DNA of 20,000 bases, from positions 7,604,329 through 7,624,328 of the forward strand of contig NC_057753.1 in assembly GCF_004010195.1 (NCBI RefSeq), written 5' to 3'. This document shows, piece after piece, positions 1,406-20,000 of this stretch (its first letter is position 1; each line of letters begins with the position of its first letter). The notes beneath the pieces are model-generated. The model worked only from the letters and a program-made list of their open reading frames with translations. It made no database searches and was not told the origin of the DNA. The position numbers and the translations under genes are program-made. The DNA is from Chiloscyllium plagiosum (taxonomy: Eukaryota).

Positions 1406-1623
1406 CAAAACAAATATGCACACCCTACCTGTAATCTCGCCATGTTGTTTCCTTCACTTTGTGATTAGACACACTTCTGGACATCTTTGTTAAATGCTAG
1501 TGGTTCACTTTCTCAATGAAGCCTTCTCTGCTTTTAAATATTATTTTCCTGCCTTCCCCTTGATTACTGACTCACTTTTACATGGGCATACTTTCGATTG
1601 CGACTTTAGAGAAGATGTAATTA

Positions 1624-3003
1624 CCCAGGTAATTATGGACCAGTGAGCCTTACTTCTGCTGTAGGAAATGTTTTGGAAAATATTATCAGAGATGAGATTT
1701 ATAATCATCTAGCAAGCACCAATTTGATTTCAGATTGTAAACATGGTTTCTTCAACGAAAGGTCGTGCCTCACAAACTTCACTGAGTTTATTGAGAAAGT
1801 GAACAAGAATGTAGATGAAGGTAGAGCGGTTGATATAGTATACATGGACTTCAGTAAAGCCTTTGATAAGCTTCCCAATGGTAGGCTGTTGGAGAAAATG
1901 AAGAGGCATTGGATTGATGGTAATTTAACAGATTGGATTAGAAACTGGCTTTCTGAAAGAAAGCAGCAACTTGTGGTTGATGGAAAATATTCAGCCTGGA
2001 GTCCAGTTAGGTGTGGTTTGGCACAAGGATCTGTTTTGGAAACACTGCTGTTTGTCATTTTTATAAATGACTTAGACGCAGGCATAAATGGACGGATTCG
2101 TAAATTTGCAGATGACTCTAAATTCGGTGGAGTAGTGGACAGTTTGGAAGAATGTGACAGATGGCAGGGGGCTTTAGATAAGCTACAGGATTGGGTTGAG
2201 AGGTAGCAAATGGAGTTCAATACAGCTAAACGTGAGGTGATTCATTTTGGGAAGAATAACAGGAAGGCAGAGCACTGGGACAAAGCAAAGACTCTTGGTA
2301 GTGTAAATGTGCAGAGGGATCTTGGAGTCCATGTACTTTGATCCCTAAAAGTTGCCACCCAGTTTGATAGTGTTGTCAAGAAGGCATGCGGTGTGTTAGG
2401 TTTCATTTGTAGAGGGATTGAGTTCCGGACGCGCAATATCATGCTGCAACTATACAAAACGCTGGTGCGGCCATATTTGGAATATTGCGTACAGTTGTGG
2501 TTGCCATATTTCGGGAAGGATGTGGAAACATTGGAAAAGATGCAGAGGAGATTTACGAGGATGTTACCTGGTCTGAAGGGGAGGTCTTATGAGGAAACGC
2601 TGAGAGACTTGGGTCTGTTCTCATTGGAAAGAAGAAGGTTAAGAGGGGATTGGATAGAGACATACAAGATGGTCAGGGGATTAGATGGGGTAGACAGTGA
2701 AAGTCTTTTTCCTCGGGTGATGTCATATTCTTGTACGAGGGGGCATAACTGCAAATTGAGCGGTGATAGATTTAAGACAAATGTCAGAGGCAAGTTCTTC
2801 ACTCAGAGAGTGATAATGGCGTGGAATGCCCTATATGCCAATGTAGTTAACTCAAACACATTACGGAGAGTGACACAATCCTTGGATAAGCACATAGATA
2901 ATGATGGGATAGTGTAAGCGGGCGAGCTGAGAATAGTTCACGGGTCGGCGTAACATCGAGGGACGAAGGGCCTGTTTTGCGCTGTATTGTTCTATGTTCT
3001 ATG
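1624..3003 (+). mobile_element. 5'-truncated CR1 LINE (RT domain, C-terminus and 3'UTR) with a 9-bp TSD
   Basis: ORFs 1643-2206 and 2393-2917 are in one frame, broken by stops at 2204 and 2338. Motifs: [55 protein letters not shown]. The tail is (ttctatg)n. 'atgtaatta' occurs at 1615-1623 and 3001-3009. Confidence 0.95.
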
Positions 3004-3336: not shown

Positions 3337-3470
3337 TGTACATGCTGGAGATCTGATACCAAAGCTGTTCTGATGAAGAGTCTCCAGATCTGACATGTTA
3401 ACTTTGCATTTGCTCTTCTGATGCTGCCAGAGCCGATGCGTTTCTTCAGCAATGTATGTTTTTGTTTGTG
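3337..3470 (+). mobile_element. Degenerate Penelope-like terminal-repeat fragment with a decayed hammerhead core
   Basis: ctgatga at 3370-3376, then a-gagtc..gatct-gaca-tgtt, then the 'gatgctgccaga..tttcttcagca' segment shared with other copies in the window. Confidence 0.55.
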
Positions 3471-5295: not shown

Positions 5296-5421
5296 TCTTC
5301 AGGAATCCTGAAGAAGGGCTCATGCCCGAAACGACGATTCTCCTGCTCCTGACCTGCTGCGCTTTTCCAGCAACACATTTTCAGCTCTGATCTCCAGCAT
5401 CTGCAGTCGTCACTTTTTCCT
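5296..5421 (+). mobile_element. Short PLE-derived element with a hammerhead motif and a mini fold-back at its 5' end
   Basis: 'tcttcagga-a-tcctgaaga' inverted repeat at 5296-5314. The body is homologous to the copies at 10240-10331 and 19110-19216 and ends 'ccagcatctgcagtc..ttttcct'. Confidence 0.8.
5302..5341 (+). ncRNA. Minimal type I hammerhead ribozyme motif (cleavage triplet mutated GUC>GAC)
   Basis: ggaatc-CUGAAGA-A-GGGC(ucau)GCCC-GAAA-CG-AC-gauucu. Stem I ggaauc/gauucu pairs over 6 bp (one G-U) and stem II has 4 bp. Confidence 0.7.
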
Positions 5422-6272: not shown

Positions 6273-6772
6273 NNNNNNNNNNNNNNNNNNNNNNNNNNNN
6301 NNNNNNNNNNNNNNNNNNNNNNNNNNNNNNNNNNNNNNNNNNNNNNNNNNNNNNNNNNNNNNNNNNNNNNNNNNNNNNNNNNNNNNNNNNNNNNNNNNNN
6401 NNNNNNNNNNNNNNNNNNNNNNNNNNNNNNNNNNNNNNNNNNNNNNNNNNNNNNNNNNNNNNNNNNNNNNNNNNNNNNNNNNNNNNNNNNNNNNNNNNNN
6501 NNNNNNNNNNNNNNNNNNNNNNNNNNNNNNNNNNNNNNNNNNNNNNNNNNNNNNNNNNNNNNNNNNNNNNNNNNNNNNNNNNNNNNNNNNNNNNNNNNNN
6601 NNNNNNNNNNNNNNNNNNNNNNNNNNNNNNNNNNNNNNNNNNNNNNNNNNNNNNNNNNNNNNNNNNNNNNNNNNNNNNNNNNNNNNNNNNNNNNNNNNNN
6701 NNNNNNNNNNNNNNNNNNNNNNNNNNNNNNNNNNNNNNNNNNNNNNNNNNNNNNNNNNNNNNNNNNNNNNNN
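6273..6772. other. Assembly gap (500 N)
   Basis: Run of exactly 500 N, a typical scaffolding placeholder. True distance and adjacency across it are unknown. Confidence 1.
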
Positions 6773-9026: not shown

Positions 9027-9257
9027 GGCATGGTGGCTCAGCGGTTAGCGCTGCTGCCTCACAGTACCAGGGTCCCAGGTTCGATTCCAGCCTCGGGTGA
9101 CTGTCTGTGTGGGTTTCCTCCCAGAGTGCAAAGATATGCACATTAAGTGCAATCATCAGAGAGAAATGGGTCTGGGTGGGTTACTCTTCGGAGGGTCAGT
9201 GTGGACTTGTTGGGCCGAAGGGCCTGTTTCCATACTGTAAGGAATCTAATCTAATCT
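9027..9257 (+). mobile_element. tRNA-derived SINE (HE1/V-SINE type), internally deleted
   Basis: Box A tggctcagcgg at 9034-9044, box B ggttcgattcc at 9078-9088, CR1-like 3' end 'gggccgaagggcctgtttcc' and an (aatct)n tail. Confidence 0.85.
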
Positions 9258-9274
9258 TAAAGAAAAGGGGTAGT

Positions 9275-9552
9275 GCACGGTGGCTCAGTGGTTAGCACTG
9301 CTGCCTCACAGTGTCAGGGACTCGGGTTCAATGCCAGCCTCAGGCGACTGTCTGTGTGGAGTTTGTACATTCTCCCAGTGTCTGAGTGGGTTTCCTCCCA
9401 CAGTCCAAAGATGTGCAGGTTAGGGTGGATTGGCCATGCTAAATTGTCCCAAAATGTTAGCTGAATTAGTCAGGGGTAAATATAGGGTAGGGGAATGGGT
9501 TGGTGTGGACTTTTTGGGCCGAAGGGATTGTTTCCATACTGTAGGGAATCTA
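9275..9552 (+). mobile_element. tRNA-derived SINE (HE1/V-SINE type), second tandem copy
   Basis: gcacggtggctcagtggttagcactgctgcctcacag head, box B ggttcaatgcc, central 'gtgggtttcctcccacagtccaaagatgtgcaggttag' and the same CR1-like tail. Confidence 0.85.
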
Positions 9553-10100
9553 AAAAAAAATTCCTTACTCTTTTCCTGGTAGGTTGTACTTGGCATTGTT
9601 TTTATTTTAATCTTTGCCCAGTCTCAGATAGCTGACACGTTCACTTAATCTTCAGATGAATTTTGACTAATTTTAGTCGAAATTCAGGAATGGCCTAAAC
9701 TATTCCACAATTGTTTTTGTTAACTTCTGATTCTCTGCTTAAGCTTCGGGTAAATTTCCCACAAATGTTTAAGGTGTAAATTCACCTCAGTTTATGTTTC
9801 AGAAGCATTTATGCCCACATTTGATAGTTTTCATGTTGCTTTAACATCAGGGACAGTAGTGCTTGCTGTCAATTTTGACGTAACTGCCACAGCCCCTGTT
9901 CTGAAGCATTTTGTTTTGAATCACAACAAAGGATCTGAATGGTTAAGGCCCAATCTTTGTAAGTCAATGTTTTTCATTCAAGTCTTGTTCTGTCATCCCA
10001 GTCGTTAGGTTAATGAATTCATTTTTAAAATATCCACAATTCCTGTGGCAAAATTAGTCTGGAAACCATCATCACCTCTTTAAAACTGCACACTGGATCG

Positions 10101-10331
10101 AGGCAAACGTGAGGACTGCAGATGCTGGAGATTAGAGTCAAGATTAGAGTGGCGCTAGAAATGCACAGCAGCTCAGGCAGCATCCGAGGAGCAGGAAAAT
10201 CGATGTTTCAGGCAGGAGCCCTTCATCAGGAATCAATGCATTCCTGATGAAGGGCTCTTTCCTGAAACATTGATTTTCCTGCTCCTTGGATGCTGCCTGA
10301 GCTGCTGTGCATTTCCAGCGCCACTCCAATC
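10101..10331. mobile_element. Palindromic PLE-derived element with a hammerhead core in each arm
   Basis: Arms 10142-10233 and 10240-10331 (92 bp, 6 mismatches by manual alignment) around a 6-nt spacer. CUGAUGA is at 10244-10250 (+) and 10223-10229 (-). Confidence 0.85.
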
Positions 10332-10339
10332 ACAGACAG

Positions 10340-10850: not shown

Positions 10851-10856
10851 TTGGTC

Positions 10857-13800
10857 TGTTGTTGTTTTTAGGTAGTGAGTAGTCCCAGTCTTATCCGAAA
10901 GATGATATACAAATGCACACAGTTGTTAGTCAATCTGGGTAGTGACAGTCACAGACTGAACCAAAGGTGTTATATAAATGCACATTGTTATTGTTGTCTC
11001 TGAGCAGTGAGCAGTTCCAGTCTGAACCGAAAGTCGCTATCTAAATGCACACTTGTTGTCGGTGGGTAGTGAGCAGTTCCACTCTGAGCCAAACGCTGCT
11101 ATATAAATGCACTGTTTTGTTGTTGTTGTCTCTGGGCAGCGAGCAGTCCCAGCTTGAATCAAAGGGTGCTATATAAATGCACTCTGTTGTTATCTCTGGG
11201 TAGGAAGAACTCCCAGTCTCAATCAAGAGGTGCTATATAAATGCACACTTGTTCTTGTTGTCTGTTGGCAGTGGGCAATCCCAGTCTGAATCAAAAGGCT
11301 ATATCAATGCAGACTGTTGTTGTCTCTGGGCAGTAAAGCAGTCACAGTCTGAACCAAACGGTGATATATAAATGCACAATGTTGTTGCTGTCTCTGTGTA
11401 GTGAGCAGTCCCAGACTGAAGCAGAAGGTGCTATATCAATGCAGACTGTTATTGTCTCTGGGTAGTAAGCAGTTGCAGTCTGAACCAGAAGGTGCTATAT
11501 AACTGCACAATGTTGTTGTTTGCATCTGGGCAGTATGCAGTCCATGTCTGAACCAAAAGGTGCTGTATCAATGCAGACTGATGTTGTTGTTGTAGCAACA
11601 AAAGTTACTACATAAATGCACGCTGTTATTGTTGCCTCTGGGCAGTAAGCAGTCCCCGACTGAAGCAGAAGGAGCTATATCAATGCAGACTGTTGTTGTT
11701 GTTGTCTCTGTGTAGTGAGTAGTACCAGTCTGAAACAGAAGGTGCTATACCAGTGCAGGCTGTTGTTGTCGTCGTCTCTGGGTAGTGAACAGTCACTGTC
11801 TGAACCAAAAGGTGCTATATAAATGCACACTTGTTGTTTGCCTCTGGGCAGTGTGAAGTCCATGTCTGAACCAAAAGGTGCTATATCAATGCAGACTGAT
11901 GTCGTTGTTGTCTCTGTGTAGTGAGCAGTCCCAGTCTGAACCAAGAGGTGCTACATAAATGCACGCTGTAGTTGTTGTCTCCGGGCAGTATCAGTTCCAG
12001 ACTGAAGCTGAAGGAGTTATATCAATGCAGACTTGTTGTTGTTGTCTCTGTGTAGTGAGTAGTACCAGTCTGAAACAGAAGGTGCTATATCAATGCACAC
12101 TGTTGTTGTTGTCTATGCACTGTGAGCAGTCTCAGTCTGAAGCAAAGGGTGCTATATAAATGCACACTTGCTGTTTGCCTCTGGGCAGTGTGCAGTCCAT
12201 GTCAGAACCAAAAGGTGCTATAATCAATGCAGACTGATGTTGTTGTTGTCTCCGGGTATTGAGCAATCCCGGTCTGAACCAAGAGTCGCTATATAAATGC
12301 ACGCTGTTGTTGTTGCCTCTGGGCAGTAAGCAGTCCCAGACTGAAGCATAAGGAGCTATATCAATGCAGACTGTTGTTGTCGTAGTCTCTAGGTAGTGAA
12401 CAGTCACTGCCTGAACTAAAAGGTGCTATATAAATGCACGCCATTGTTGTATCAGAGCAGTAAGCAGTTGCCGTCTGAACCAAACGGTGATATATAAATG
12501 CATAATGTTGTTGTTGTCTCTAGGCAGTAAGCAGTCCCAGACTGAAGCAGAAGGTGCTATATCAATGCACACTATCGGTATTGTCTCTGGGCAATAAGCA
12601 GTCGCAGTCTGAACCAAACGGTGATATATAAATGCACAATGTTGTTGTTGTTTTTGGGCAGTGAGCAGTCCCAGACTGAAGCAGAAGGTGCTATGTCAAT
12701 GCAGACTTGTTGTTGTTGTCTCTGGGCAGTAAGCAGTCACAGTCTGAACAAAACTGTGCAATACCAATACACAGTGTTGTTGTTGTATGTGGGTAGTGAG
12801 CAGTCCCAGTCTGAATCAAAAGGTGCTATACAAATGCACACTGTTGTTGTCTCTGGGCAGTAAGCAGTCCCAAACTGAAGCAGAAGGTGCTATATCAATG
12901 CAGACTTGTTGTTGTTGTCTCTGGACAGTAAGCAGTCTCAGTCTGAATCAAACAGTGATATATAAATGCACAATGTTGTTGTTGTCTGTGGGCAGTGAGC
13001 AGTCCCAGATTGAAGCAGAAGGTGTTATATCAATGCCAACTACTGTTGTTGTTGTCTCAGGGCAGTGTACAGTCCCTGTCTGAACTGAAAGGTGCTATAT
13101 AAATGCACAATGTTGTTGTGTCTGGGCAGTGAGCAGTCCCAGTCTGAACAAAACGGTGCTATATAAATACACACTGTTGTTGTTGTGTGTGGGCAGTAAA
13201 CAACCCAGACTGAACCAGAAGTTGCTATATAAATAGACAGTGTTGTTGTCTTTAGGCAGTGGAGCCAACCCAGTCTGAAACAAACGGTGATATAGGAATG
13301 CACAATGTTGTTGTTGTTGTCTGTGGGCAGTGAGCAGTCCCAGACTGAAGCAAACGGTTCTATATCAATGCAGACTGTTGTTGTTGTCGTCTCTGGGCAG
13401 TGGGCAGTCCATGTCTGAACACAAAGGTGCTATATAAATGCAATGTGTTCTTGTTGTCTCTGGGTAGTGAGCAGTCCCAGTCTGAATCAAAAGGTGCTAC
13501 ATAAATGCACACAATGTTGTTGTCTGTGGACAGTGTGCAGTCCCGGTCTGAACCAGAAATTGCTATATCAATGCAGACTGTTTTTGTTGTTCTTGTCTCT
13601 GAGCAGTGAGCAGTCCCAGTCTGAACTAACAGGCGATATATAAATGCACAATCTTGTTGTTGTTGTCTCTGGGTAATGAGCCGTCAATGTCTGAATCAAA
13701 AAGTGCTATATCAATGCACAGTTTTGTTGTTGTTGTCTCTGTGGGCAGTGAGCAGTCCCAGTCTGAACAAAAAGGTGCTATATAAATACACACCGAGTTA

Positions 13801-14100
13801 TTGTTATTGTCTCTGGGCAGTGAGCAGTCCTGTTGTGAACCAAAAGGTGCTATATAAATGCACACTGTTGTTATCATCTCTGGGCAGTGAACAGTCCCAG
13901 TCTGAACCAAAAGGTCTTATATAAATGCACACTTGTTGTTGCATCTTGACAGTCAGCAGTCCCTGTCTGTGCATTTATATAAGACCTTTTGGTTCAGACT
14001 GGGACTGCTCATTGCCCAGAGACAACAGCAACAACAGTGTGCATTGACATAGTACCGTTTGGTTCAATATTGTTGTTGTTGTTGTCTCTGGGCAGTGAGC
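10857..14100 (+). repeat. Tandem satellite, ~66-70 bp unit, roughly 48 copies
   Basis: Consensus gtctctgggcagtgagcagtcccagtctgaaccaaaaggtgctatataaatgcacactgttgttgtt. Unit length varies with the (ttg)n tract. An inverted segment lies at 13968-14066. Confidence 0.97.
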
Positions 14101-14836: not shown

Positions 14837-15640
14837 GATATTAGAAGGGGAGGGTTCATGATTTGGAAACTCAATCTCACGTTAACATTAACAGAGCCTC
14901 AATCGATCAGGACTGGAATCCCATTGATCTTTGAAAGTGGAAGGAGAAATGTTTGCTCTGTCTGCGGGAGAATGGTTCAAATATCAGTGAAAATTGCTGA
15001 GAGACACACACACAATCTGAGTTAGTGGGTTGCAGTGCAGCGGTGACTGTGGAAGGAGCTTTAATCAGTCTCACAGTGTGAAAAACCCCTCCATCACACT
15101 GCTCCCAGCAGGGAGCCCCAGTACATGTGAGGGCATGTGAGTTCAGGGCTTCAACTGATTGTCCAACCTGGAGAAATGCAGAAACACTGGCACCAGGCAG
15201 AAACCTTGGAAATATGAACGCTGTAGGAAAGGATTCACTGGAAAGCCTTTGACGCAGTCCCACTGGAGAGAAACCGTGCATCTGTTCCCTATGTGGGAAG
15301 GGATTTACTCAGATATCTCCGTGATCTCTCACCAGAGAGTTCACACTGAGGAGTGACCCTGCAAAACTGCATTTCCCGTGAAAAAAAATTCAACAATTTA
15401 TCCCCCCTCACCGTACCCCAGTGAGCTCACACGGGGGAGAGAGGGTTCACTGGACCGGGTGGGGGAAATGATTCATTCAATCATTCGAGCTGGTCACACA
15501 GTGACCACACAGTGGGGAGACCATTCACCTTCCCTGTTTGTGCGGAAGGGTTCACTCCGTTGTTCCATTTCCTGTCACACCACCAGGTTCACACCGAGGA
15601 AAAACAATTCATCTGCTCTGCCTCTTGGAAGAGTTTTTAG
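14837..15640 (+). pseudogene. Decayed C2H2 zinc-finger gene exon (Krueppel-type tandem fingers)
   Basis: Acceptor 'tccttcacAG' ends at 14836. Finger and linker remnants: KPWKYERCRKGFT, TGEKPCICSLCGKGFTQ, HQRVHTEE*P and RPFTFPVCAEGFTPLFHFLSHHQVHTEEKQFICS. There are many stops, frameshifts and lost Cys/His residues. Confidence 0.85.
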
Positions 15641-15655
15641 GGAGTTATGCAAATC

Positions 15656-15741
15656 TGCTGGAGAAACTCAGCAAGTCTGGCAGCATCTGTGGAGGGAGAA
15701 ACAGGGTCAACATTTTATGTCCAGTGCCCCCTTCTTCAGAA
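15656..15741 (-). mobile_element. PLE terminal-repeat fragment with a decayed hammerhead core
   Basis: tgctggagaaactcagcaagtctggcagcatc... On the minus strand CUGAAGA is at 15733-15739, with a broken stem II and GAAA. Confidence 0.6.
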
Positions 15742-16477
15742 GCTCTCTGTAGAGTAACATCCTGAAACTGGGTAACGTGTGTGTCTGTGTGTGTGTGGGA
15801 GAGGGAATTTACTCCATTGTAATAATACCTGCTGAGATATCAGCCAGTCCAGAAGTGAAGGTTGGGTTCTGCTTCTGCTGCTAGTGCCCGTGTTAATCAT
15901 CCCGTAAACCTATTTAGTTTGTTCCAGCATCCATGAACAACCCTGTAACTGTCCAGAGGTTAATATTCTGGAAAGTCTTGCTGATTTGGTGGAGCTCAAT
16001 CTGAAATCTTTTCCCCTCGATGCAAAAAGATCATGTAAACATATTCACGGTAAAATTGTGAACTTTTACTTGGATTGCCAATGGACCAATGGTAGCAGAT
16101 ATACAATTCAGTCTCTGAAAGGCGGCACCGATGAACATCTCCAACGAGAAAGCGCTGATTAATCTTCACTGACAATTCTGGCTGATGGGCACATTCTTGA
16201 TTGTGGCAGGTCCACTCTGAAATGAAATCATGAAGGAGCATGAAACCGAATCAGGAAGTATTTTGCAGACACATCAACAAAACCTCATTGTTGTGGAGTG
16301 GGGGGTGGGGGAGGCTCACTACCAGTTCTTCAGTCTTACACTCGAATAGCTCTCCCCTGATTGCCCCAGACACTTGATCCCTGTTTCTCACCACCTCCCA
16401 CCCCCCACCTCTGCACTGTGGGCTCAGCAGCCCATCTCTGGTTTCTGTAGGTCCCCACCGATCCTCTGTAATCCCTG

Positions 16478-16849: not shown

Positions 16850-17565
16850 ATGTAAAAGCAGTGATGTGCTACTAAGATGGTATAAAACTCTGGTTAGGCC
16901 CCATTTAGAATACTGTATCTAAATGTGGGCCCCACACCTCAGGAAGGACAGACTGGTACTGGAGTGTATCCAGCGGAGATTCACATGGATGATCCCTGGA
17001 ATGGTAGTCTAGATGAGAGTGGTGCTGGAAAAGCACAACAGGTCAGGCAGCATCTGAGGAGCAGGAAAATTGATATTTCTGGCAAAAGCCCTTCCATCAG
17101 GAATGGGCCTAACATACGATGAATGGCTGAGGAGCCTGGGATTGTATTCATAAGAGTTTAGAAGGTTGAGGGGAGATCTAATAGAAAATTACAAGATAAT
17201 GCATGGCTTAGAGAGGGTGGACGCTGGGAATTTGTTTCCATCAGGCAGGGATACTAGGACCCATGGGCACAGCCTTAAAACTAGAGGGGGTCAGTTTAGA
17301 ACGGAAATGAGGAGACATTTCTTCAGCCAGAGAGTGGTGGGCCCTGTGGAATTCATTGCCACAGAGCACAGTGGAGGCCGGGATGTTAAATGTCTTCAAG
17401 GCAGAGATTGATAAATTCTCAATCTCGCAAGGAATTAAGGGATATGGGGAGAGTGAGGGTAAGTGGTGTTAAAATACCCATCAGCCATGATTAAATGGCG
17501 GAGTGGACTCGATGTGTTGAATGGCCTTGCTTCCACTCCTGTTTCTTATGGCCTTATGGTCTTAT
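16850..17565 (+). mobile_element. 5'-truncated CR1 LINE, interrupted by a PLE-derived insert
   Basis: YKTLVRPHLEYC..WAPHLRKD, then RGDLIENYKIMHGLERVDAGNLFP..TRTHGHSLK..FFSQRVV. The tail is (cttatgg)n. Confidence 0.9.
17008..17104 (-). mobile_element. Single-arm PLE-derived insert with a degenerate hammerhead, inside CR1
   Basis: Homologous to the left arms at 10142-10233 and 19015-19105. It ends at 'catcaggaat', and CR1 coding sequence resumes on both sides. Confidence 0.8.
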
Positions 17566-17667: not shown

Positions 17668-18115
17668 GAACATCACGGTTGAGTGACCCATCTTCAGAAT
17701 TGATGGGAGCGAGGAAAGGGTTGCTGTTTGTGCAGAAGATAGAGTAATGGCGGGGGGGGGGGGGGGGGTGCAGGGAGAAATAAGCAAGCAATAGGTGGGA
17801 ATAGATCCCAAAGAGAGAGAGAAAAACAGTTGGATCCACAGTGGTGTTGGGGGAGACCAGCTTGGTAAAATAAGGGTTACTCCTGAAACATTGACCTCTC
17901 CACCTCCTCATGCTACCTGGCATACTATGGTCTTCCAGCCTCCTGTTTGTCTACCTTGGATTCCAGCACCTGCAGTTTTTTTCTTATCTCTAACTTTGAT
18001 AAAATATTGTGGACTATTAGGTGTCACTCATACCAAAATGTGAACTCTGATTTTTCACCACAGATGCTGCCAGATTTGCTAAGATTTTCCAGCAATTTGT
18101 ATTTTTGTCTCCAAG
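17668..18115. mobile_element. Cluster of degraded PLE terminal-repeat fragments
   Basis: Minus-strand CUGAAGA at 17691-17697 with gggtca..cc stem remnants. Plus-strand 'cctgaaacattgac..atgct..ccagcacctgcag' lies at ~17880-17980 and 'cagatgctgccagatttgct..tccagca' at ~18037-18115. Confidence 0.5.
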
Positions 18116-18349
18116 TTGCAGCGCTTTTTCATTAGTCACTAAAAATGGGTTGCGTGTGGTAGCAGCCGAAATGAGGAGAAGGTCTAGTGGGGTTTGGGGT
18201 ATGAAGATATGGGAAAAGCTGTTCAATCCCTCAGATTGTTGACTTTCCTATTCATACACCCATACAGATACCTTTTTAAATGTTGTAATTTAATACTCAC
18301 TCACTGCTATTGGTTGGACTGATTTGCAGGTGCTGATGTTGGACTGGGG

Positions 18350-18492
18350 TGCACAAAGTTAAAAATCACACAACACCAAGGTATAGTGCATCAGATTTAT
18401 TTGGAAGCACTAGCTTTCGGAGCGCTGCTCCTTCATCAGGTAGTCGTGGAGTATTAGCTCAGAGGACACAATTTTTAGCAAAGGTTTACAGT
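18350..18492 (-). mobile_element. Penelope-like terminal repeat (second family), cut by the CR1 insertion at 18493
   Basis: 'aaaaatcacacaacacca..tttatttggaagcactagctttcggagcgctgctccttcatcagg' carries an intact hammerhead core. Confidence 0.7.
18408..18443 (-). ncRNA. Minimal type I hammerhead ribozyme motif, intact core
   Basis: Minus strand: cuac-CUGAUGA-A-GGAGC(agc)GCUCC-GAAA-GC-UA^gug. Stem II has 5 bp, stem III is the palindrome AGCU, the CUA triplet fits the NUH rule, and stem I uac/gug is short. Confidence 0.78.
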
Positions 18493-19015
18493 ATAGAACA
18501 TAGAAGAATACAGCGCAGTACAGGCCCTTCGGCCCTCGATGTTGCGCCGATCCAAGCCCACCTAACCTACACTAGCCCACTATCCTCCATATGCCTATCC
18601 AATGCCCGCTTAAATGCCCATAATGAGGGAGAGTCCACCACTGCTACTGGCAGGGCATTCCATGAACTCACGACTCGCTGAGTAAAGAACCTACCCCTAA
18701 CATCTGTCCCCCCCTTAATTTAAAGCTATGCCCCCTTGTAATAGCTGACTCCATACGTGGAAAAAGATTCTCACTGTCGACCCTATCTAAACCCCTAATC
18801 ATCTTGTACACCTCTATCAAGTCACCCCTAAACCTTCTTTTCTCCAAGGAAAACAACCCCAAGTGCCTCAGCCTTTCCTCATACGATGTTCCTACCATAC
18901 CAGGCAACATCCTGGTAAACCTCCTCTGCACCCGTTCCAGTGCCTCCACATCCTTCCTATAGTATGGTGACCAAAACTGCACACAATACTCCAGATGTGG
19001 CCGCACCAGAGTCTT

Positions 19016-19216
19016 GGATCAGTGGTGCTGGAAGAGCACAGCAATTCAGGCAGCATCCGAGGACAGGCAAAATCGACGTTTCGGGCAAAAGCCCTTCATC
19101 AGGAATCCTGAAACGTCGATTTTGCCTGTCCTCGGATGCTGCCTGAATTGCTGTGCTCTTCCAGCACCACTGATCCAGAATCTGGTTTCCAGCATCTGCA
19201 GTCATTGTTTTTACCT
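19016..19216. mobile_element. 201-bp palindromic hammerhead-bearing insertion with a 14-bp TSD
   Basis: 'cgcaccagagtctt' at 19002-19015 and 19217-19230. The inverted arms 19015-19082 and 19110-19177 are identical over 68 bp. Confidence 0.93.
19069..19108 (-). ncRNA. Minimal type I hammerhead ribozyme motif, intact core
   Basis: Minus strand: ggauuc-CUGAUGA-A-GGGC(uuuu)GCCC-GAAA-CG-UC^gauuuu. The triplet is GUC and stem III is the palindrome ACGU. Stem I is imperfect. Confidence 0.8.
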
Positions 19217-20000
19217 CGCACCAGAGTCTTATACAACTGCAACATGACCTCAGGACTCCGGAACTCAATTCCTCTACCAATAAAAGCCAGTACGCCATAT
19301 GCCTTCTTCACCGCACTATTTACCTGGGTGGCAACTTTCAACGATCTGTGTGCATGGACACCAAGATCCCTCTGCTCATCCACACTACCAAGTATCCGAC
19401 CATTAGCCCAGTACCCCATCTTCTTGTTACTCTTACCAAAGTGAATCACCTCACACTTAGCTACATTGAACTCCATTTGCCACCTTTCTGCCCAGCTCTG
19501 CAGCTTATCTATATCCCGCTGTAACCTGCCACATCCTTCCCCACTGTCTACAACTCCTCCGACTTTCGTATCATCTGCAAACTTGCTCACCCAACCTTCT
19601 AACCACTCCTATAGGTCATTTATAAAAATGACAAACAGCAATGGTCCCAAAACAGATCCTTGCGGAACACCGCTAGTGACGGCACTCCAAGATGAACCTT
19701 TGCCATCAACTACTACCCTCTGTCTTCTTTCGGCCAGCCAACTCCTAATCCAAACCTCCAACTCACCCTCAATGCCATACCTCCGTATTTTTTGCAGTAG
19801 TCTACCATGGGGAACCTTATCAAACGCCTTACTAAAATCCATATACACCACATCTACCGCTTTCCCCTTGTCCACCTCCTTAGTCACCTTCTCAAAGAAT
19901 TCAATAAGGTTTGTGAGGCACGACCTGCCCTTCACAAAACCATGCTGACTATCCTTGATCACATTATTCCTATCCAGATGTTCATAAACCCTATCCCTTA

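Follow-up and report, generated by a model that had tools for sequence, protein, structure and literature searches.

The insert in the window, by which we mean the whole 20,000-nucleotide stretch of Chiloscyllium plagiosum DNA that was analysed, holds the same hammerhead-bearing repeat end twice, head to head and in one case with a tail, between 14-bp duplications. It is probably a severely 5'-truncated, dead insertion of an endonuclease-bearing (EN+) Penelope-like element (PLE), and its intact hammerhead core is best explained by inheritance and the youth of the sequence, rather than by a function at this site. The coordinates of the insert, of its host and of its relatives in the window are collected in Table 1.

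Table 1. Features of the insert, its host element and family copies in the window
Feature	Position	Strand	Remarks
Left target-site duplication (TSD)	19002-19015		14 bp of CR1 ORF2 sequence; the inner 11 bases resemble the tail start (9/11)
Left arm, a pseudo-LTR (pLTR) end copy without tail	19016-19106	-	Sense on the minus strand
Minimal type I hammerhead core	19075-19102	-	CUGAUGA-A-GGGC-UUUU-GCCC-GAAA-CG-UC at 19102-19075; features as described in the available part of PMC4209133
Head-to-head junction	19100-19112		Small palindrome TCAGGA-A-TCCTGA
Right arm, a pLTR end copy	19107-19177	+	Sense on the plus strand
One-sided 39-bp tail of the PLE-insertion type	19178-19216	+	Loose ends pile at 19216 and 19178
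Right TSD	19217-19230		14 bp
Host CR1-type LINE ORF2, 3' part	18490-20000 (left boundary approximate)	-	RVT_1 match, E 1.4e-20
Same family, full fold-back	10103-10335 (outer limits approximate)		92-bp arms, 93%
Same family, single arm without tail	17005-17104	-	Inside another CR1-type copy
Same family, older, arm and tail	5296-5421	+	Inverted stub of ~8-10 nt at the 5' end; no clear TSD

In the repeat search the two direct repeats were identical at 14 of 14 positions, with 201 bp (19016-19216) between them. The inverted arms (19015-19082 and 19110-19177) were complementary at all 68 positions, the first of which, 19015, is also the final base of the left TSD, and the pairing reaches 71 bp with a single mismatch at 19083/19109. 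The tail occurs on the right arm only and has no mirror on the left. The left arm extends to a point just upstream of the hammerhead core, while the right arm is without the first half of the core and without stem II, which is absent on the plus-strand side of the junction. When the insert and one repeat are taken out, the frame of the host, a LINE that we take to be of the CR1 type, runs for 195 codons with 0 stops; the host ORF2 has one in-frame stop at 19609-19611. Thus the initial annotation was right that an insert with a 14-bp direct repeat and two identical 68-bp inverted arms splits CR1 ORF2, that its removal regains the frame, and that only one strand carries a full core, and its view that the insert arose by retrotransposition with a TSD is supported. 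Its further claim that the insertion was recent stands insofar as the arms are identical, but in a relative sense only, because 0 differences in 82 paired arm positions allow a pairwise divergence of up to ~3.7% (rule of three), a bound which presumes that the arms were not homogenised by hairpin repair. The window also contains the 3' part of another CR1-type ORF2 on the plus strand (1610-3000), which is 73-78% like the host copy and is uninterrupted at the homologous site.

The assignment to PLEs comes from the anatomy of their insertions, for which the comparisons made here hold for the available parts of the sources cited. PLE insertions are described as truncated at the 5' end, frequently accompanied by an inverted copy next to them, and with a 30-40-bp tail on one side (Craig et al., PMC8557442). 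In Pen2a_Av a pLTR is inverted, one pLTR carries a tail of 31 bp and the TSD measures 9 bp (Arkhipova et al., PMC3846280), in which study palindromes at head-to-head junctions were read as self-priming. The corresponding features of an EN+ PLE insertion unit were found here: an inverted, 5'-truncated, head-to-head pLTR, a one-sided tail of 30-40 bp, a minimal type I hammerhead in the pLTR and a variable TSD length. With the EN+ Penelope/Poseidon units (Pen2a_Av, PMC3846280; PAc, PMC11167929; PMC8557442) it shares the inverted head-to-head pLTR, the 30-40-bp one-sided tail, a TSD of similar size, the junction palindrome and the position of the hammerhead ~85 and 124 nt from the two ends, and with Pen2_Av it shares insertion into a non-LTR element (PMC3846280). 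In vitro, the protein of anole Poseidon cleaves each of the two strands and extends it (Frangieh et al., PMC11167929); according to the available part of that report, its reverse transcription begins at two positions within the RNA, which mark the limits of the tail, and hammerhead cleavage is not needed. The distances are also close to those of anole Poseidon, since the cut lies 25 nt from the AUG of the core here and 26 nt there, and the long end lies at +124 here and at +111-118 there, the short end here being at +85 (PMC11167929). The agreement of the head-to-head pLTR ends, the one-sided 39-bp tail, the TSD and the minimal hammerhead with published PLE anatomy supports the Penelope-like origin proposed earlier, and the truncated pLTR ends and one-sided tail agree with what had been offered as an alternative, namely that the insert is an extreme PLE truncation product. 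We infer that it was mobilised by a PLE reverse transcriptase (RT)/GIY-YIG protein.

In comparison with EN+ PLE units, the insert has no ORF and no direct pLTR pair, and only the terminal ~90-130 nt are present on each side. In PAc and Pen2a_Av the ORF starts inside the pLTR (available parts of PMC11167929 and PMC3846280); the AUG of the core is likewise placed here, but its frame closes after 17 codons, and a later start or another frame is possible. Among 44 ORFs of at least 90 aa in the window, with Pfam run on six stretches, no PLE ORF was recognised. Pattern scans gave 0 relatives of the repeat in viral contigs (one scan) and 0 in metagenome contigs (two scans). The kind of insertion described here has already been published. 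None of the entries listed in a search of the literature on Penelope, shark repeats and hammerheads named the family itself.

A scheme of the insertion can be proposed from these features. A PLE protein with GIY-YIG endonuclease and RT, encoded elsewhere, would cut both CR1 strands 14 nt apart, and the bottom-strand end would prime RT at the far start site of the pLTR RNA (the tail end, 19216), from where ~125 nt would be copied, as far as the leading edge of the hammerhead. Two routes to the mirror arm may be considered: the small palindrome of the junction may have allowed a fold-back, or the top-strand end may have primed a second time, at the near start site. There, 9/11 bases of the target match the RNA, and both routes could use this match; 20 of 38,978 window positions score as well, under a scoring that was chosen after the fact and with the family copies included among those positions. 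Stem II may have been lost from the right arm in one event, through an 18-nt slip between CCTGA and CCCGA, or alternatively through a stop at the foot of stem II and then one CpG transition. A simple fold-back would need the later 18-nt loss of stem II, and two primings would need the stop and the one CpG transition. A small centre palindrome is present in the 5-kb copy too, which fits a fold-back with the later 18-nt loss. The hammerhead motif would be inherited cargo in either case. Because the copies hold sequence 5' of the cut site, the template was apparently uncut. The enzyme, the order of the steps and the death of the copy are what we infer in this scheme.

The other members of the family in the window differ in layout. 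The copy at 10103-10335 has the core on both arms, a 6-nt spacer and the tail on its left arm, and has no firm TSD, the best candidate being 8 nt with one mismatch. The 17-kb copy has a candidate TSD of 7 bp (16998-17004 and 17100-17106) which overlaps the 5' end of the element. The junction palindrome TCAGGA-A-TCCTGA is also found at the 5' end of the copy near 5300. Together with the insert, these four copies present four layouts with different centres, with TSDs of 14 bp, 7 bp (candidate), 8 nt (candidate with a mismatch) and none that is clear, and all four end within ~10 nt upstream of the core. The 17-kb copy (16998-17106) lies in the 3' part of another CR1-type ORF2, so that two of the four are in CR1, which probably reflects the abundance of CR1. 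At 17857-17985, 18020-18110, 15640-15760 and 3340-3465 there are decayed repeats that either have a tail motif like this one or resemble the insert weakly, and these are probably further old PLE-end families. The window contains other repeats as well: ~46 copies of a 67-bp satellite (10856-14066), whose unit presumably resembles the 3' tail of a LINE or SINE and which are terminated by an inverted segment (13968-14066) folding back on the preceding copies; two neighbouring copies of a tRNA-like SINE at 9028-9553 (86% identity over 85 nt and 89% over 57 nt); and, by eye, decayed C2H2 zinc-finger-like coding remnants with TGEKP-type linkers at 14900-15650. An assembly gap of ~500 N occupies 6273-6772.

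The stretch or part of it was present in 20 of the 24 public sequencing runs listed. Four runs were aligned at 90% likeness, comprising DNA contigs of organisms A, B and C (X2, X9 and X12, respectively) and raw RNA reads of organism A; runs X17-X20, which held small shares, were left out. The summed contig depth over the core, which is no copy number, was 2.8-5.7 million and was higher than over the CR1 flanks in each of the three DNA runs, and this shows that the family is very abundant in the DNA runs of the three organisms. Among the 24 of 1414 loose-end rows listed, those with mixed flanks piled at 19216 (278 contig records, agreement 0.34, in X9), at 19178 (18 records, X9) and at 19021 (11 records, X2), as well as at 19106 in all four runs (249-379 records each, agreement 0.34-0.57), with a consensus that starts with GA(A)GG in each of the four; 30 letters beyond the aligned part were available at each loose end. 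The centre of the insert (19108-19129) had 0.4-3% of peak depth in the three DNA runs, although some of this thinness is artefactual, as a read that could be placed on either arm may have been counted for the left one. The copy-specific stretch 19065-19066 reached ~16% of peak depth in X2 and <1% in X9 and X12, which suggests that a subfamily with this stretch expanded in organism A. The variant at 19172 made up ~40% in X2, 3% in X9 and 50% in X12. An empty junction, with a skip of 215 and 14 letters that fit either side, occurred in all four runs among the 15 of 325 joint rows listed, but CR1 paralogues give the same empty join, so this junction says nothing about insertion polymorphism. The RNA reads of organism A covered the family both ways, and 89% of them ran on into unlike sequence.

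The strongest of the other readings is that the ~130-nt unit from the hammerhead to the end of the tail is a non-autonomous, SINE-like partner of a PLE, with the fold-back still made at insertion and with a short RNA of its own that would start just upstream of the hammerhead. The pile of mixed-flank 5' ends at 19106, found in each of the four runs among those 24 of 1414 rows, is sharper than expected from random truncation, and the common 5' limit of the four window copies, the closure of the frame from the core's AUG and the frequency of the 19065-19066 stretch in X2 point in the same direction. However, RT stalling at hammerhead hairpins, or fold-back on them, would give the same pile, and the GA(A)GG consensus hints that some copies continue into shared upstream sequence. 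Organisms A and C have the other variant, at 19172, at about equal frequency, and in the RNA run there was no site where many molecules begin and no pile of ends, which is a weak test in a poly(A) single-cell library of which ~2 reads in 100 were read. Because a dedicated short RNA and truncation would explain the sharp limit at 19106 equally well, we keep a small chance for the SINE-like partner beside the truncated PLE insertion that we prefer.

As the initial annotation had stated, a hammerhead core is present on the minus strand, with C17 at 19075 and a predicted cut between 19075 and 19074. Its parts are CUGAUGA, a bulged A, a 4-bp stem II with a UUUU loop, GAAA and a loop-less, palindromic ACGU stem III; stem I is weak (C-G, U-A, a U.U mismatch and A-U). 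The minimal hammerheads of PLEs are marked by an extra base before stem II, by G10.1-C11.1 and by a loop-less palindromic helix III, and are reported to have no activity as monomers and low activity as dimers (Cervera and De la Pena 2014; PMC4209133, available part). The same source describes pairs of minimal hammerheads that lie on opposite strands at a distance of 100-700 bp, although most motifs were single ones left by truncated PLEs. Our core shares with these metazoan motifs the conserved core, the extra base between positions 9 and 10.1, G10.1-C11.1, the palindromic loop-less helix III, the short helix I and the solo or opposite-strand occurrence, and differs in a helix II of 4 bp as against 7-8 bp in the Schistosoma families (PMC4209133, available part). 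It differs also in that it sits within a long duplex, as judged from sequence and folding. A minimal-hammerhead descriptor custom-built for this analysis had four matches in the window (10242 on the plus strand, and 10231, 18441 and 19104 on the minus strand), compared to a mean of 0.007 and a maximum of 1 in 300 first-order Markov simulations. This descriptor matched the core (19104, minus strand), and Rfam did not: there was no hammerhead family among 13 Rfam matches up to E 1 in the whole window, where the matches over the insert were generic microRNA hairpins below gathering scores, nor among two matches up to E 10 on 19040-19115. The descriptor match at 18441 belongs to a second, unrelated minimal hammerhead on the minus strand (18333-18480), with a GGAGC/GCUCC stem II and an AGCU palindrome, which abuts the 3' end of the host CR1 copy and is likely from another PLE family.

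Folding predictions suggest that the core is not free to act in this copy. The minus-strand RNA of the insert folded into one long hairpin of -157.2 kcal/mol (z = -22 against 200 shuffles), in which stem II had a predicted probability of 0.97, stem I of ~0, and C17 a probability of 0.0001 of being unpaired. Opening the hammerhead half was predicted to take 24.5 kcal/mol in the fold-back and 5.8 kcal/mol for the left arm without the antisense arm. For a dimer of the 43-nt core, the unconstrained minimum-energy fold differed from the double hammerhead, with the ACGU duplex worth only -1.7 kcal/mol. The hammerhead motif is therefore predicted to be locked shut by the hairpin, with the cut site paired in a long duplex, and because of this the completeness of the core is no proof of ribozyme activity in this copy. 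Since the antisense arm is transcribed first, no rescue by co-transcriptional folding would be expected. The word "intact" in the initial annotation holds for the completeness of the core on the minus strand, and its weight is reduced because the core is predicted to be trapped in the 68-bp duplex. As the plus-strand RNA lacks a full core and the minus-strand cut site is predicted to be paired, this copy likely neither cleaves nor propagates as a unit.

These results leave a very small chance that the insert is a fold-back retroposon, or an element like a retrozyme, which propagates itself and processes its own RNA with the minus-strand hammerhead. Such an element would account for the intact core on one strand, the identical arms and the perfect TSD, fold-backs recur in the family (the 10.1-kb copy), and a protein might remodel the RNA, because the anole Poseidon hammerhead works only with its protein (PMC11167929, available part). 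However, the cut site is predicted to lie in the 68-bp duplex with the penalty of 24.5 kcal/mol, the centres differ between the window copies, and the core is kept together with its 5' flank, which indicates that the template was not cut. The repeat search found no tandem array and no second core on the same strand at the site, and retrozymes are by definition tandem repeats with type I hammerheads in the available parts of PMC7229834 and bioRxiv 10.64898/2026.07.22.740005. With the animal non-LTR retrozymes of these two sources the insert does share its small size, the lack of coding sequence, a type I hammerhead, the relation to PLEs and a TSD of >4 bp. Nevertheless, retrozymes are head-to-tail repeats that yield circular RNAs (PMC7229834, available part), whereas in the insert the two units stand head to head, with a single minimal core between them and a tail of the PLE type. 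A non-LTR retrozyme was rejected on this ground, a single head-to-head pair not being a series of head-to-tail units each with a hammerhead, and one with a canonical type I hammerhead, with a helix III loop and tertiary contacts (PMC7229834, available part), was rejected for the loop-less helix III and weak helix I; the 2026 preprint, in its available part, also admits minimal cores in retrozymes (bioRxiv 10.64898/2026.07.22.740005). The label "retrozyme-like" is thus not supported, as there is no tandem array and the core is minimal rather than canonical. Similarly, the four layouts in the window and the thinly covered centre do not support a self-contained fold-back that moves as such.

MITEs of DNA transposons are short, palindromic, non-coding inserts with high copy number, and the insert, being short and non-coding with long inverted repeats and numerous copies, could be mistaken for one in which the hammerhead match is incidental. 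This is extremely improbable: its inverted arms miss one end because of the 39-bp tail on one side, single-arm copies exist, the TSD candidates vary (14, 7 and ~8), and the hammerhead descriptor matches are far above chance. A test for two-ended terminal inverted repeats and a fixed TSD failed, and the MITE was rejected on the asymmetric and single-arm copies and the variable TSD; the initial annotation had named fixed inverted-repeat ends and a constant TSD as evidence against itself, and a one-sided tail and variable TSDs were found instead. An assembly artefact, a chimeric fold-back, has next to no chance: the window holds an N gap and no listed contig piece spans either insert junction, but a perfect 14-bp TSD, a restored frame and an asymmetric centre are hard to get by mis-assembly.

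The truncated PLE insertion alone matters little, being one of very many such stubs. As a clean and young example in which both junctions can be read, it bears on the way in which PLEs form inverted pLTRs and tails, a step described as still undefined in the available part of PMC8557442. Two of its features, the 9/11 target match at the short end and the loss of stem II from one arm only, are countable genome-wide and could separate fold-back from twin priming. More speculatively, and with a modest chance of being right, the family may be an active, Penelope-dependent SINE of ~130 nt with an RNA that starts at the hammerhead, and this copy may record twin priming by a dimeric PLE protein. Each strand of the cut, staggered by 14 nt, would then prime one template: one strand would do so at the long start site, and the other at the short site with the help of microhomology to the target. 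If true, twin priming would explain the inverted arm, the one-sided tail and the TSD in one step. Under the combined reading, every fold-back would silence its own ribozyme, and each would be a source of hairpin RNA against the family.
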